Assembly (NCBI RefSeq): GCF_022846255.1
Contig: NZ_AP025682.1
DNA from: Escherichia coli
Lineage (GTDB): Bacteria > Pseudomonadota > Gammaproteobacteria > Enterobacterales > Enterobacteriaceae
Direction: 5' to 3' (one strand)
DNA: 64,000 bases
This document shows positions 6,886 to 56,695 of this stretch, piece by piece. The number at the start of each line of letters is the position of its first letter. The first letter of the stretch is position 1. Under the pieces are notes generated by a model that saw only the letters and a list, made by a program, of their open reading frames with translations, did no database searches and was not told the DNA's origin. Position numbers and translations under genes: made by a program.

Positions 6886-6985
6886 CCTGCATTACAGAAT
6901 TTAATTTCCTTAAATAACAGTAAATTAAAAACTGGCATGATTTGTGAATGTATCGGCGCATTAACTGTTATTGCTGGAGAATTTG

Positions 6986-9983: not shown

Positions 9984-11117
9984 CTACACCGGCAACGTTT
10001 TCAACAATCCAAACGCCTCTTTCATCCGATCCTCACTGACCACAAAGGCGCGAAGCTGGTCGGCATCATCAACACCGCGCGCCACCATCCCCTGGCGTTC
10101 GGTATTAATCTGCCAGCGTAAATCCTGACGCTGGGTTTCGCCTGCCAGATGCAGCGGTAATTCTGGCGTTTTGATTTTCACCAGCATCGCCGGGAGTTTC
10201 AGCGGCGTGTTATTGCCGAGAAGATTTTTTGCCAGCACCATCGCGCTAAGTTGAATCGGCTGGAGGAACGGCAATACCTGACCGTTAATTTCCGCGCAAT
10301 CGCCCAGCGCATAAATATCGGCATTACTGGTTTGCAGATAACTATCGACGCAAACGCCGCGATTAATCGTCAGCCCGGCGCGTCGTGCCAGGGCGGTTTC
10401 CGGGCGCAGTCCGGTGGCGGCAATTCCCGCATCCACTTCGATGCAGCGCTGGCGGTCCAGCGTTGCCAGAATGCCAGAATCTGTTTTTTCTAGTCCCTGC
10501 AACTGAGATTTCAACAGCAGATGAACGCCCATCTCCGTCAACCGATGCTGCAAGCGGCTGCTGACTTCCGGTGGCATTAACGACGCCAGAATACTGGCAG
10601 CGTTGTCGATTAGCGTGACCGCTTTGCCTGCCCGACAAAAATCCATCGCCAGTTCACTACCAATCAAACCACCGCCGACAATCAACACGCGTCGGGCATC
10701 CCGCAGTTGCGTTTCACAGGCGCGATACTCTTGCTGACTATTTAACGTCAGCATTAACTCACGCCCGGGCACTGGCGGGACAAAGGCGCTGGCACCAGTT
10801 GCCAGCACTAACTTGTCGTATTGCCACTGATTATTCTGACTTTTCACCACATGGGCTTCGGCATCGATATCCGTCACCCAGGTGTGCGGAAACAGGTGCA
10901 GATTAAACTGCTCGGCAAATTCACCCGCCGTCTGGCGGGTAAGGTCATCGGCACGTTGCCCCTGGCTGATAACATGGCTGAGATCCGGTTTGTTGTACTC
11001 ATCCATGCTGTCGGCGGCAATCAGGGTTAATGGAATACTGGCGTCCTGTTTGCGAATATTTTTCACCAGTTGGCGGGCGGCGAAGCCCGAACCAATGATC
11101 ACAATGCCTTTGCTCAT
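9984..11117 (-). CDS. norW: NADH:flavorubredoxin reductase
   Basis: 377 aa; FAD/NAD-binding GxGxxG motifs ([12 protein letters not shown]; [12 protein letters not shown]). Confidence 0.93.
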
Positions 11118-12553
11118 TTTGCCTCCGATGCCAGTTCGTCAAAGACGTCTTTGCCGAGGGAGCACTCCGGGCACAGGAAGTTATCCGGGACTTCACTCCA
11201 CGGCGTTCCTGGCGCAACGTCCTGCATTGGCTCGCCTTTTGCCGGATCGTAAATCCACTGGCAGACGCTGCACTGCATCCGTGGGCCGAGGTCAGCCGTC
11301 GTGGTGGCAGAGGTTTCTTCTTTAACCACCGTATTCACCGTGCTCTGCGGCAGCGGCGCGAGCGCCCACTGACGGGCGATTTCGCGACCGTGTTCACGGC
11401 ATAACTCCAGCGCGTCCTGGTCCGGTCGCCATTTGGCTTTCAGGCTAAGCGACATTTCGAAACCCGCATCCTGCAGGCGCGTGGAAAGACGATCCACCGC
11501 ACCGCCGCTCCAGCCGTGAGAGCCGAAAGCGCTGGCGCGTTTGTTACGGAAGCGTAATCCGGTCATCTCCTCCACCAGCCCGGCGATTTTCGGCATCATC
11601 ACATTATTCATCGTAGAAGTGCCGACCAGCACGCCTTTTGAGCGGAAGACATTGGTCAGGATTTCGTTTTTATCGCTTCGGGCGACGTTGAAAATTTTCA
11701 CCGCCACGCGTGGGTCGGTTTCCGCAATCCCCTGGGCGATAGCGTCAGCCATCATGCGGGTGTTATTCGACATGGTGTCGTAGAAAATGGTGATTCTGTC
11801 TTCCTGATAATCCGCCGCCCATTTCAGGTACAGCTCGACAATTTGCGTCGGGTTATCGCGCCATACCACGCCGTGAGAGGTCGCTATCATATCGACTGGC
11901 AAGTTAAAGCCCAGGATCTCGGTAATTTTCGGCGTTACCAGGCGGCTGAACGGCGTCAGGATATTGGCGTAGTAACGCTGGCACTGCTCGAAAAGCTCAG
12001 TCTGATCCACTTCATCGTTGAACAGATGCTCGTCGCAGTAGTGCTGACCGAAAGCATCGTTACTGAACAGCACCGCGTCGCCTGTCAGGTAAGTCATCAT
12101 GCTGTCCGGCCAGTGCAACATTGGCGTTTCGACAAAAATGAGCTGTTTGCCGTTGCCGATATCCAGCGTGTCGCCTGTTTTCACCACATTAAAATTCCAC
12201 TCCGGATGATGGTGATGACCATTTATCGAGTCGATAGCGTTGGCAGTACAGTAGATCGGCGTATCGGGAATTTGTGCCATCAGTTCGGTCAGCGCCCCGG
12301 CGTGGTCCTCTTCAGCATGGTTAATTACGATGTAATCGATATCCGCCAGATCGATTTCATTACGCAGGTTCTGCACAAATTCGCGGCTGAATTTATGGTC
12401 GACGGTGTCGATCAGCACGTTTTTTTCTTCGCGGATGAGGTAGCTGTTGTAGCTGCTGCCGCGCAGCGTTTTATATTCTGTACCGTGAAAATCACGCACT
12501 TCCCAGTCACGTTGACCAACCCAATGAATGTTATTTTTCACCACAATAGACAT
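11114..12553 (-). CDS. norV: Anaerobic nitric oxide reductase flavorubredoxin
   Basis: 479 aa; metallo-beta-lactamase-like, flavodoxin-like and C-terminal rubredoxin (CxxC...CPxC) regions; overlaps norW. Confidence 0.94.
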
Positions 12554-12600
12554 AGCAACCTCAATTTATTCAGCGTGTTCTAAAAAGATGTCTTGCTAAT

Positions 12601-12617
12601 TGCAGATTGCGTGCCAG
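12601..12617 (-). promoter_or_regulatory. Sigma-54 (-24/-12) promoter for norVW
   Basis: Reverse complement reads cTGGCACgcaatcTGCAa, matching the TGGCAC-N5-TTGCA consensus, about 50 bp upstream of the norV start. Confidence 0.75.
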
Positions 12618-12671
12618 TTTTTTATCTAATTGTTTTTACTCTATAAATAAAATTGTGCTCATTAATGAGTA

Positions 12672-12727
12672 GTCAAAATGACTATCAATAAAATGGTCGA
12701 TATGACAATATCTATAGTCAAATTGAC
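12672..12727. promoter_or_regulatory. Three NorR enhancer sites (GT-N7-AC)
   Basis: gtcaaaatgac (12672-12682), gtcgatatgac (12696-12706) and gtcaaattgac (12717-12727), in the divergent norR-norV region. Confidence 0.8.
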
Positions 12728-12739
12728 AGTGAGGCAAAG

Positions 12740-14254
12740 ATGAGTTTTTCCGTTGATGTGCTGGCGAATATCGCCATCGAATTGCAGCGTGGGATTGGTC
12801 ATCAGGATCGTTTTCAGCGCCTGATCACCACGCTGCGTCAGGTGCTGGAGTGCGATGCGTCTGCGTTGCTACGTTACGACTCGCGGCAGTTTATTCCGCT
12901 TGCCATCGACGGGCTGGCGAAGGATGTACTCGGTAGACGCTTTGCGCTGGAAGGTCATCCACGGCTGGAAGCGATTGCCCGCGCCGGGGACGTGGTGCGC
13001 TTTCCCGCAGACAGCGAATTGCCCGATCCTTATGACGGTTTGATTCCAGGGCAGGAGAGTCTGAAGGTTCACGCCTGCGTTGGTTTGCCGTTGTTTGCCG
13101 GGCAAAACCTGATCGGTGCCTTGACGCTCGACGGGATGCAGCCCGATCAGTTCGATGTTTTCAGCGACGAAGAGTTACGCCTGATTGCTGCGCTGGCGGC
13201 GGGAGCGTTAAGCAATGCATTGCTGATTGAACAACTGGAAAGCCAGAATATGCTGCCAGGCGATGCCGCGCCGTTTGAAGCGGTGAAACAGACGCAGATG
13301 ATCGGTCTGTCGCCAGGCATGACGCAATTGAAAAAAGAGATTGAGATTGTGGCGGCATCCGATCTCAACGTTTTAATTAGCGGTGAGACGGGAACCGGTA
13401 AGGAGCTGGTGGCGAAAGCGATTCATGAAGCCTCGCCACGGGCGGTGAATCCGCTGGTCTATCTCAACTGTGCCGCACTGCCGGAAAGTGTGGCGGAAAG
13501 TGAGTTGTTCGGGCATGTGAAAGGGGCGTTTACTGGTGCTATCAGTAACCGCAGCGGGAAGTTTGAAATGGCGGATAACGGTACGCTGTTTCTCGATGAG
13601 ATCGGCGAGTTGTCGTTGGCATTGCAGGCCAAGCTGCTAAGGGTGTTGCAGTATGGCGATATTCAACGCGTTGGCGATGACCGCAGTTTGCGGGTCGATG
13701 TGCGCGTGCTGGCGGCGACTAACCGTGACTTACGCGAAGAGGTACTGGCAGGGCGATTTCGCGCTGACTTGTTCCACCGCCTGAGCGTGTTTCCACTTTC
13801 AGTGCCGCCGCTGCGTGAGCGGGGCGATGACGTCATTCTACTGGCGGGGTATTTCTGTGAGCAGTGTCGTTTGCGGCTGGGGCTCTCCCGCGTGGTATTA
13901 AGTGCCGGGGCGCGGAATTTATTGCAACACTATAGTTTTCCGGGGAACGTGCGCGAACTGGAACATGCTATTCATCGGGCGGTGGTGCTGGCGAGAGCGA
14001 CCCGCAGCGGCGATGAAGTGATTCTTGAAGCGCAACATTTTGCTTTTCCTGAGGTGACGTTGCCGCCGCCAGAAGCGGCGGCGGTGCCTATCGTTAAGCA
14101 AAACCTGCGTGAAGCGACAGAAGCGTTCCAGCGTGAAACCATTCGTCAGGCACTGGCGCAAAATCATCACAACTGGGCCGCCTGTGCGCGGATGCTGGAA
14201 ACCGACGTCGCCAACCTGCATCGGCTGGCGAAACGTCTGGGGCTGAAGGATTAA
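12740..14254 (+). CDS. norR: Sigma-54-dependent NO-responsive transcriptional activator
   Basis: 504 aa; GAF region, AAA+ sigma-54 activation domain ([14 protein letters not shown]) and C-terminal HTH. Confidence 0.94.
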
Positions 14255-26383: not shown

Positions 26384-26476
26384 GGTGAGGTGGCCGAGAG
26401 GCTGAAGGCGCTCCCCTGCTAAGGGAGTATGCGGTCAAAAGCTGCATCCGGGGTTCGAATCCCCGCCTCACCGCCA
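26384..26476 (+). tRNA. serV: tRNA-Ser (anticodon GCU), long variable arm
   Basis: 93 nt cloverleaf ggtgaggtggccgagag...ccgcctcaccgcca with anticodon loop cugCUAag and encoded CCA. Confidence 0.93.
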
Positions 26477-26479
26477 TTT

Positions 26480-26556
26480 GCATCCGTAGCTCAGCTGGAT
26501 AGAGTACTCGGCTACGAACCGAGCGGTCGGAGGTTCGAATCCTCCCGGATGCACCA
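26480..26556 (+). tRNA. argV: tRNA-Arg (anticodon ACG), copy 1
   Basis: 77 nt gcatccgtagctcagctggatagagtactcggctACGaaccgag...ggatgcacca; 3 nt after serV. Gene names for the four copies assigned by order only. Confidence 0.9.
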
Positions 26557-26620
26557 TCTCTTACTTGATACGACTTTAGTGGCGGTATCAAAAAATCTGC
26601 AGTAAAGTAAGTTTCCCGAT

Positions 26621-26697
26621 GCATCCGTAGCTCAGCTGGATAGAGTACTCGGCTACGAACCGAGCGGTCGGAGGTTCGAATCCTCCCGGATGCACCA
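26621..26697 (+). tRNA. argY: tRNA-Arg (anticodon ACG), copy 2
   Basis: Identical 77-nt sequence to copy 1. Confidence 0.9.
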
Positions 26698-26759
26698 TCT
26701 CTTACTTGATATGGCTTTAGTAGCGATATCAATATCAGCAGTAAAATAAATTTCCCGAT

Positions 26760-26836
26760 GCATCCGTAGCTCAGCTGGATAGAGTACTCGGCTACGAACC
26801 GAGCGGTCGGAGGTTCGAATCCTCCCGGATGCACCA
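26760..26836 (+). tRNA. argZ: tRNA-Arg (anticodon ACG), copy 3
   Basis: Identical 77-nt sequence to copy 1. Confidence 0.9.
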
Positions 26837-26899
26837 TCTCTTACTTGATATGGCTTTAGTAGCGATATCAATATCAGCAGTAAAATAAATTTTTCCGAT

Positions 26900-26976
26900 G
26901 CATCCGTAGCTCAGCTGGATAGAGTACTCGGCTACGAACCGAGCGGTCGGAGGTTCGAATCCTCCCGGATGCACCA
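26900..26976 (+). tRNA. argQ: tRNA-Arg (anticodon ACG), copy 4
   Basis: Identical 77-nt sequence to copy 1. Confidence 0.9.
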
Positions 26977-29753: not shown

Positions 29754-29825
29754 AAAAGGCCACTCGTGAGTGGCCAAAATTTCATCTCTGAATTCAGGGA
29801 TGATGATAACAAATGCGCGTCTTTC
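29754..29825 (-). ncRNA. micA: Hfq-dependent small RNA MicA (SraD)
   Basis: Reverse complement reads GAAAGACGCGCATTTGTTATCATCATCCCTGAATTCAGAGATGAAATTTTGGCCACTCACGAGTGGCCTTTTT with an intrinsic terminator; in the gshA-luxS gap. Confidence 0.9.
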
Positions 29826-30409: not shown

Positions 30410-30435
30410 TCAGTAAACTATCTTCACAATTAATT

Positions 30436-30466
30436 GAAAAAAGCCAGTTCAAATGAACTGGCTTAG
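30436..30466. terminator. Hairpin terminator between convergent luxS and emrB
   Basis: Stem agccagttc/gaactggct with loop aaat; flanked by an A-run upstream, which is the T-run for minus-strand emrB. Confidence 0.65.
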
Positions 30467-30472
30467 TTGTAC

Positions 30473-36419: not shown

Positions 36420-36500
36420 GTAGGTATGATAAGACGCGCCAGCGTCGCATCAGGCATTGTGTACAGAGCGGCGGATGAGGCAAAAACGCCTTATCCGCCC
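36420..36500. repeat. REP/BIME palindromic units in the ygaY-proX gap
   Basis: gataagacgcgccagcgtcgcatcaggc and ggcggatgaggcaaaaacgccttatccgcc palindromes. Confidence 0.7.
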
Positions 36501-39818: not shown

Positions 39819-40174
39819 GCAATAGAAAGATTCCTGTTATTTGTTTATGTCGATACATTACCCAATGGAAATAGTCACTTTTTTCTACCCTAACATACTG
39901 AGAATCTGAGGCAACCCCTGATGGCAAATGTGGCATGAATATTGATGTGAGCAAATCGCCGGAATTTCCCATGATATAAGGGCTGAGAGCAAATCGAGAA
40001 AAGTTGATATTTTTTGTCAAAGATAGCGAAAAAACGCCTGAATATTGTGGTTTCAGGCGAATAATGCAACAGAGTGTCAGTGTAGATCACCACAAAATAT
40101 TTGCGTGATAAAAAGCTATTTGGTGGGAATTATTTCCCTGCTGCGGGTAGTGATATTTTTGAAAAATAACACCC

Positions 40175-45472: not shown

Positions 45473-46139
45473 GCTAATGCTCCTTAATAAAAGCGTAATG
45501 GGATGTTAATGGAGATGAAAGCAGTGGATCTCATTGCCATCTGCATTTTCGCATAGCGTATATCGCTGGCTATGACTAATCAATTAGTGAAAAATTTTTA
45601 TTTAATCTGTTTTTGTAGATAAAATATTCCGTAACGGCGCGTTTTTTGTACATTGTGGATTTTTACATGCCGGTATGATTTATTTTTAATTAAATCAATT
45701 GGATATGTGTTTACCTTTATTTTCACTCATGAAGGTTTGGGGGGGAGGTAACGCTATAAGCGTAGAGAATTCGGTGTATGTAGTGATCGGGTCATTTTCA
45801 GCATTTTTTATGCCAGATAATGTACATTGACAGCAGAAAGCACCAGTGAGTGATGTTTTCTTTTATTCTGTTGAGTTGCATTTTTATTCACTTTGGTTTT
45901 GTCAGGCTTGCGGAATTAGCGAGCAGAGAGCGCCGCTCTGTTCACCAATAACCTAAATTACTCATCAAAATGGCTAATATATAATCTTGAAATTATTCTG
46001 AGAGTTTCAGAAAATAACAGCTGAAATAATCTCGTGCAGGACTGTAAATAGATTAAATTTTGTGGAAATATAATAAGTGATCGCTTACACTACGCGACGA
46101 AATACTTTTTTGTTTTGGCGTTAAAAGGTTTTCTTTATT

Positions 46140-56332: not shown

Positions 56333-56695
56333 TGGTGGAGCTGGCGGGAGTTGAACCCGCGTCCGAAATTCCTACATCCTCGGTACTACATGCTTAGTCA
56401 GTCTTTACATTCGCTTGCCAGCTGCGGACGGACACGCCACTAACAAACTAGCCTGATTAAGTTTTAACGCTTCAACCCCAGGCAGGGCTTCCACGCGATC
56501 TCTTTTGGGTTTGACCTCTCTTGATCCCCGTCCTAAGAGCGGAGGCTAGGGAGAGAGGGCTCTAAGCAGGTTATTAAGCTGCTAAAGCGTAGTTTTCGTC
56601 GTTTGCGACTATTTTTTGCGGCTTTTTACGAGGCCAACCGCCCCTCGGCATGCACCTTGGGTTTCGCAAATCCCGTCGAATCCAGAATCAGCCCC
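56333..56695 (-). ncRNA. ssrA: tmRNA (transfer-messenger RNA, SsrA)
   Basis: Reverse complement begins GGGGCTGATTCTGGATTCGACGGGATTTGCGAAACCCAAGGTGCATGCCGAGGGGCGG and ends ...GGTTCAACTCCCGCCAGCTCCACCA; 363 nt; tag-coding region present. Confidence 0.97.

Follow-up and report, generated by a model that had tools for sequence, protein, structure and literature searches.

The stretch of DNA analysed here, 64 kb long and hereafter called the window, is a segment of the Escherichia coli chromosome that carries hyc, norWV, norR, srl, recA, csrA, proVWX and gab and reaches to ssrA. Around norRVW it shares about 99% identity with E. coli ATCC 11775, a different strain whose accessory content differs elsewhere. 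The norV and norR genes diverge from a common spacer which, according to both the list of open reading frames and the sequence, fills exactly the interval between them (Table 1) and measures 186 bp. This spacer contains 31% G+C, against 52% for the window as a whole. In a related E. coli genome that is about 99% identical here, the RefSeq annotation likewise places norV and norR on either side of it.

The flanking genes were identified with NCBIfam equivalog models, whose scores were compared with the cut-off of each model. All three products are full length: the NorV model (NF003954) covers residues 1-479 of 479, NorW is covered in full by NF003437, and the NorR model (NF003451) spans residues 2-503. 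NorR displays the domains of a sigma-54 activator, with a GAF domain at residues 22-154, a sigma-54 interaction AAA+ domain (Sigma54_activat) at residues 187-353 and AAA_lid_14 (Pfam), and its translation contains the GAFTGA loop and the Walker A motif GETGTGKE. The C-terminal helix-turn-helix gave no Pfam match at E<=0.001, although NF003451 still extends across that part of the protein.

Table 1. Coordinates of the genes and control elements of the norR-norVW locus in the window
Feature	Position	Strand	Remarks
norW, NADH:flavorubredoxin reductase	9984..11117	-	NCBIfam NF003437, 680 bits vs cut-off 392
norV, flavorubredoxin NO reductase	11114..12553	-	479 aa; NCBIfam NF003954, 1047 bits vs cut-off 711
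norV-norR divergent intergenic control region	12554..12739	.	ORF list, sequence, RefSeq annotation of a relative
norV transcription start (probable)	12590	-	37 nt before the norV ATG (12553)
Sigma-54 promoter of norVW, CTGGCACGCAATCTGCA	12601..12617	-	GG 12615/12614 = -25/-24; GC 12603/12602 = -13/-12
-12 element TTGAT in other loci (L024, L030, L035-L087)	aligned to 12601-12605		
Putative IHF-like element, AAACAATTAGATA	12623..12635	-	-33 to -45; 2 mismatches to WATCAANNNNTTR; placed via alignment
NorR site 1, GTCAAAATGAC	12672..12682	.	nearest the promoter, centre about -87; Site1 primers and 21-bp NorR1 oligonucleotide (Tucker 2010)
NorR site 2, GTCGATATGAC	12696..12706	.	Site2 primers (Tucker 2010)
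NorR site 3, GTCAAATTGAC	12717..12727	.	perfect palindrome; Site3 primers (Tucker 2010)
norR, NO-sensing sigma-54 activator	12740..14254	+	NCBIfam NF003451, 826 bits vs cut-off 476

Promoter and NorR sites in the norR-norV spacer

The initial annotation, made from the sequence, had placed a near-consensus sigma-54 -24/-12 element on the norV strand, and this reading holds. The element TGGCACGCAATCTGCA at 12601-12616 (minus strand) departs from TGGCAC-N5-TTGCW at one position, its -12 element being CTGCA and not TTGCA, and it is the sole match in the window when up to one mismatch is allowed. Scanning with a sigma-54 weight matrix gave the same answer. The matrix was built from the 41 intergenic sense ChIP-seq sites of Bonocora et al. 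2015, with norV omitted, and under it the norV site scores 18.1 bits, compared with a training median of 15.7, and ranks first among all positions of the window on both strands. The K-12 ChIP-seq site OS25 carries the motif CTGGCACGCAATCTGCA, is assigned to norV with the start predicted to lie 37 nt ahead of the gene, and is flagged as experimentally confirmed in EcoCyc (Bonocora et al. 2015); positions 12601-12617 of the window, read on the minus strand, are identical to this motif letter for letter.

The start rule used in that study, which counts 19 nt downstream of the motif centre, leads from the centre at 12609 to position 12590, where we infer the norV transcript to begin, to within 2 nt. 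A start at 12588 would account for the published footprint just as well had the other strand been labelled.

Upstream of the promoter, the spacer harbors three inverted repeats of the GT-N7-AC type. They had been described as three evenly spaced 11-bp palindromes, and the three 11-mers do lie where they had been placed; the even spacing and the uniform palindromy required correction. Centre-to-centre distances are 24 bp between sites 1 and 2 and 21 bp between sites 2 and 3, and site 3, which ends 12 nt before the norR ATG, is alone in being perfectly palindromic over 11 bp. Site 1 consists of complementary arms of 4+4 bases, and in site 2 the mismatch is confined to pair 4/8 (G/T), the three outer pairs and the innermost one being complementary.

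The bare GT-N7-AC pattern is a loose one, with 207 matches in the window. The longer form GTC-N5-GAC occurs 13 times in the whole window, three of them inside these 56 bp, and among 10^6 Markov sequences simulated per model, three such matches within 186 nt turned up in none when the model was trained on the spacer and in 4 when it was trained on the window. The more specific pattern GTCRAWWTGAC has no match in the 64 kb outside the three NorR sites, with 0.28 expected, and the observed count was reached in none of 100 shuffles. Genomic SELEX in K-12 recovered NorR binding to this spacer only (PMC8249747), in line with the sites being unique in the window.

Published reagents and footprints allowed the sites to be compared base by base with those dissected in K-12. 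The mutagenic primers Site1-3 of Tucker et al. 2010 contain exactly the three 11-mers, GT being replaced by GG and AC by CC (PMC2831303). From the same study, the 21-bp NorR1 oligonucleotide is the exact reverse complement of 12666-12686, and the 66-bp NorR123 oligonucleotide is the reverse complement of 12668-12733 except for a strain difference at 12690. Methylation protection and enhancement were reported from -137 to -84 (PMC2831303); with the start at 12590, -84 falls on 12674 and -137 on 12727, the G residues that lie farthest out in sites 1 and 3, respectively, on the norV strand. Because the promoter coincides with the ChIP-seq motif and the footprint limits coincide with the sites, the two comparisons on which the initial annotation could have failed, namely the location of the RpoN site and the published positions of NorR, both come out in its favour.

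The functional claim attached to the sites, that all three are required for NorR oligomerisation and activation, can be retained with one qualification. Activation of norV-lacZ, the ATPase activity of NorR and formation of the open complex all depend on each of the three (Tucker et al. 2010, PMC2831303). Oligomerisation demands more than the sites, for a 66-bp fragment containing all three did not support a stable higher oligomer and flanking DNA was also required (PMC2831303).

Conservation across Enterobacterales and within E. coli

A scan with NorR yielded 80 loci with 78-100% protein identity, 78 of which include the divergent norV start. These 78 loci formed the comparison set, to which the window was added (n=79 sequences). 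They represent about 77 Enterobacterales species and not 78, since one contig probably comes from E. coli. That contig, L008 (DXKH01000030.1), belongs to the 'Citrobacter' metagenome-assembled genome HRGM_Genome_0066, is 7.7 kb long, encodes a NorR 100% identical to that of the window and carries an E. coli-type spacer; a second contig of Citrobacter sp. HRGM_Genome_0066, L017 (DXKH01000052.1), bears a Citrobacter-like norR with 90% identity. The short contig L008 is therefore probably a mis-binned E. coli contig.

The spacer measures 179-192 bp in the 78 loci, and within it the enhancer is nearly constant. Three strict GTC-N5-GAC sites are present in 77 of the 79 sequences, the third site of the remaining two having a single mismatch, and the sites usually lie at -68, -44 and -23 from the norR ATG. 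The distance of 24 bp between sites 1 and 2 is found in every one of the 77 sequences with three strict sites, and the full 24 + 21 arrangement in 76 of them. The 18 GTC/GAC core positions are 99.9% conserved, compared with 90-91% for the whole 11-mers and 48-63% for the spacers between elements. The centre of site 1 lies 60-63 bp from the -24 G in 78/79 sequences, and the -24 G lies 56-67 nt from the norV ATG. With the distance from site 1 to -24 thus fixed, the variation in length sits in the 5' leader and not between enhancer and promoter.

The promoter combines an essentially invariant half with a divided one. TGGCAC at -24 is retained across the comparison loci, while the -12 element takes two main forms: CTGCA, as in the window, occurs in Escherichia, Citrobacter, Salmonella and Kluyvera (n=32/79), and TTGAT, in which GA replaces the canonical GC with TGGCAC kept at -24, occurs in Enterobacter, Klebsiella, Kosakonia, Raoultella and relatives (n=40/79).

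Alignment of the Enterobacterales spacers also revealed a conserved block, AAA-ATCAAnnnnTTAAAAA, between -24 and a variable A+T-rich stretch. The IHF core WATCAANNNNTTR, with 0-1 mismatch, is found 17-21 nt upstream of TGGCAY in 63 of the 79 sequences, whereas a control offset gave 3 of 79. No exact IHF core occurs in the 186-bp spacer of the window, where the aligned position holds the diverged copy listed in Table 1. Passages of PMC2831303 that cite Tucker 2004 place the binding of IHF between the transcription start and the NorR sites, and conservation suggests 12623-12635 as its putative position in the window. The spacer had been called a complete NO-sensing switch; the sites and the promoter are indeed there, but the description left out the IHF-like element, and since a switch also needs the NorR protein and sigma-54, the spacer alone does not make it complete.

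One further match to the enhancer pattern was considered and rejected. A perfect GTCA-N3-TGAC, GTCACGTTGAC, lies at 12506-12516 inside norV, over codons 13-16 (G-Q-R-D), where it might pass for a fourth NorR site. The G-Q-R-D peptide is invariant across species, but the T of GT is the third base of the Gly13 codon, which reads GGC in 35 sequences, GGT in 27, GGA in 10 and GGG in 7; because this wobble base varies freely, the match is regarded as a coding coincidence.

Within E. coli, a 501-bp query around the spacer is present in 5425 of 5426 complete genomes, and 5424 of the 5426 carry the 76-bp enhancer segment with an identity of at least 95%. The spacer of the window and that of K-12 are both 186 bp long and agree at 182/186 positions (97.8% identity). 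The four substitutions, at 12628, 12655, 12659 and 12690, leave the NorR sites and the promoter untouched, and one of them falls on an unconstrained position of the IHF-like element.

A natural variant of the enhancer was encountered in E. coli isolate AF3 (NZ_OZ547117.1; L005:3001-3141, aligned to 12672-12727), the sole record, among about 5425 genomes, in which the spacer was covered to less than 80%. Through a deletion of 45 bp (24 + 21 bp), NorR sites 1 and 3 are merged and one GTCAAAATGAC remains; the annotation shows norR, norV and norW as intact genes. From the rule that three sites are needed it follows that AF3 should not induce norVW, and the isolate thus offers a natural allele with a collapsed enhancer on which this expectation is testable.

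Control of norVW by NorR

Of what distinguishes a norVp-type control region, the following is found at this locus: a sigma-54 element with GG at -24 and GC at -12 facing norV, three inverted GT-N7-AC repeats upstream of the promoter, a divergent norR whose product combines GAF, AAA+ (GAFTGA) and a C-terminal DNA-binding region, and a downstream operon encoding the NO-detoxifying norVW. The region is most readily understood as the native E. coli norR-norVW control region, working as described for K-12, and we put the probability of this reading at about 0.97. Sequence identity with the K-12 elements, statistical significance, conservation with fixed geometry and the integrity of norR, norV and norW come from the present analysis; the literature supplies NorR binding, the requirement for all three sites, assembly of the hexamer and the sensing of NO. 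For K-12, induction of norV that depends on NO, NorR and RpoN is known.

According to this scheme, sigma-54 RNA polymerase would rest on the -24/-12 element at 12601-12617 as a closed complex oriented toward norV. Three NorR dimers would occupy the GT-N7-AC sites, from about -84 to -137, and assemble a DNA-bound hexamer that is pre-formed, inactive and dependent on flanking DNA for its stability. An IHF-induced bend in the A+T-rich stretch would bring enhancer and promoter together. Binding of NO to the ferrous iron of the NorR GAF domain would lift the repression of the AAA+ domain, and ATP hydrolysis would then remodel sigma-54, so that the promoter opens and norVW is transcribed. NorR bound at the same sites very probably also limits norR transcription, a step that draws on the geometry of the spacer and on a secondary statement in PMC8249747. 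There, NorR is said to regulate norR as well as norVW. As for the geometry, site 3 ends so close to norR, in a spacer of 186 bp, that any norR promoter overlaps or lies upstream of bound NorR; a simple scan of 12450-12850 detected no sigma-70-like norR promoter on the plus strand.

The same proximity to norR, together with the statement on NorR regulation of norR and norVW (PMC8249747), could be taken to mean that the sites are mainly operators through which NorR represses its own gene, their enhancer role being secondary. This is very unlikely, as each site is essential for norV activation and the nearly constant distance of 60-63 bp between site 1 and -24 in 78/79 sequences reflects a constraint that concerns the norV promoter. 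Autoregulation fits best as a further task of this NorR complex, alongside and not instead of its function as an enhancer-bound activator.

We consider it extremely improbable that the three 11-mers are chance inverted repeats without function. An A+T-rich spacer and a pattern as loose as GT-N7-AC do invite such repeats, but the simulations returned the observed arrangement at most four times in 10^6, the cores have remained 99.9% conserved while neighbouring spacers drift, and published mutagenesis and footprints fall on exactly these bases. Hardly any weight can be given, either, to the idea that another sigma-54 promoter is used or that norV is driven by a sigma-70 promoter. The sole sigma-70-like match in 12450-12850 does lie on the norV strand (12708..12681, 9/12), in a scan whose hits were no more numerous than those in shuffled sequences. 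Against this idea, the next sigma-54 score within the spacer is 8.2 bits, on the wrong strand, compared with 18.1 for the site facing norV; the ChIP-seq motif coincides with that site, and permanganate reactivity of NorR-dependent open complexes has been reported at -11 to +1 of the norV promoter. The enhancer-activated sigma-54 promoter at 12601-12617 is accordingly retained.

This is the same locus as the known NorR switch, in another E. coli strain, and as such it is already known and adds nothing new. Earlier studies of NorR and norVW have employed footprinting, mutagenesis, ATPase assays, electron microscopy, ChIP-seq and genomic SELEX, and the switch has found application as a NO biosensor. 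The sequence-only reading had placed the sigma-54 promoter and the three activator sites correctly to the base, and the locus therefore serves as a positive control for such readings. The comparison contributes a modest quantitative result, in that the GTC/GAC cores, the 24+21 spacing and the distance from enhancer to promoter are almost absolutely conserved.

Since this geometry has been held almost without exception across the 78 loci, the 24 + 21 spacing and the approximately 62 bp to -24 may be a functional requirement for hexamer closure or for facing the polymerase, and not a historical accident; we regard the odds as about even. If it is such a requirement, one-site alleles such as that of AF3 would be non-inducible for norVW, and the known mechanism would be refined without a new system being implied.

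Comparison with related systems places the region among its relatives. The norVp locus of E. coli K-12 (Tucker et al. 2004, 2010; Justino et al. 2005) is the same locus, with a promoter and three sites identical to those of the window. The norR-norV spacers of Salmonella, Citrobacter, Klebsiella, Enterobacter and other Enterobacterales share the three sites, the 24+21 spacing, the distance of about 62 bp from site 1 to -24 and TGGCAC, whereas Enterobacter, Klebsiella, Kosakonia and relatives differ from E. coli in the TTGAT -12 element and in an IHF core closer to consensus. At a greater distance, the NorR boxes upstream of norA/norB in Ralstonia eutropha (Busch et al. 2004) are of the GT-N7-AC type conserved among proteobacteria, and deletions in the R. 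eutropha norB promoter likewise pointed to a need for three sites, as related in passages of PMC2831303. According to the same passages (PMC2831303), the R. eutropha system differs in that its target is a haem b3-iron NO reductase and its NorR has about 40% sequence homology with E. coli NorR. The NtrC enhancers at glnAp2 and the TyrR boxes likewise consist of several dimer sites at which a hexameric AAA+ regulator is nucleated upstream of its target. Two sites suffice for NtrC, with control exerted at oligomerisation, whereas NorR requires all three and is controlled after assembly.

Other sigma-54-like motifs and features of the window

The second-best sigma-54 score in the window, 17.4 bits, belongs to CTGGCATAAAAAATGCT at 45800-45816 (minus strand), which lies in the 667-bp spacer between alaE and stpA, some 330 nt upstream of alaE. 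To our knowledge, there is no known activator for this sigma-54-like motif of alaE. The motif corresponds to a ChIP-seq site assigned to alaE with a fold-above-threshold score of 6, which appears in the supplementary material and not in the main table (Bonocora 2015).

Two further motifs are identical to K-12 sigma-54 ChIP-seq sites: the hydN promoter CTGGCATGATTTGTGAA at 6932-6948 (plus strand), which is OS26, and the intergenic site GTGGCATGAATATTGAT antisense to ygaC at 39930-39946 (plus strand), which is OA04. Inside norV, TTGGCTCGCCTTTTGCCG at 11227-11244 (plus strand) is antisense to the gene and points to norR; it matches an intragenic antisense sigma-54 ChIP-seq site with a fold-above-threshold score of 3 in the supplementary table (Bonocora 2015).

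Several RNA genes were also recognized. A tRNA cluster at 26384-26973 (plus strand), downstream of csrA, consists of one Ser and four Arg tRNAs, the sRNA MicA is encoded at 29754-29825 (minus strand), and the nucleoid-associated RNA naRNA4 at 36423-36500 (minus strand) scores barely above its Rfam threshold. Between luxS and emrB, at 30414-30472, the window is without a 2.1-kb, two-gene insert of ATCC 11775 that encodes an ATP-binding protein and an RNA ligase family protein and is possibly a small accessory or defence module. The tmRNA gene ssrA was found at 56333-56695 (minus strand) with 296 bits. Its 3' end is a classic site of island integration. Similarity to ATCC 11775 ends within it, at 56369, where ATCC 11775 has an integrase-bearing island.
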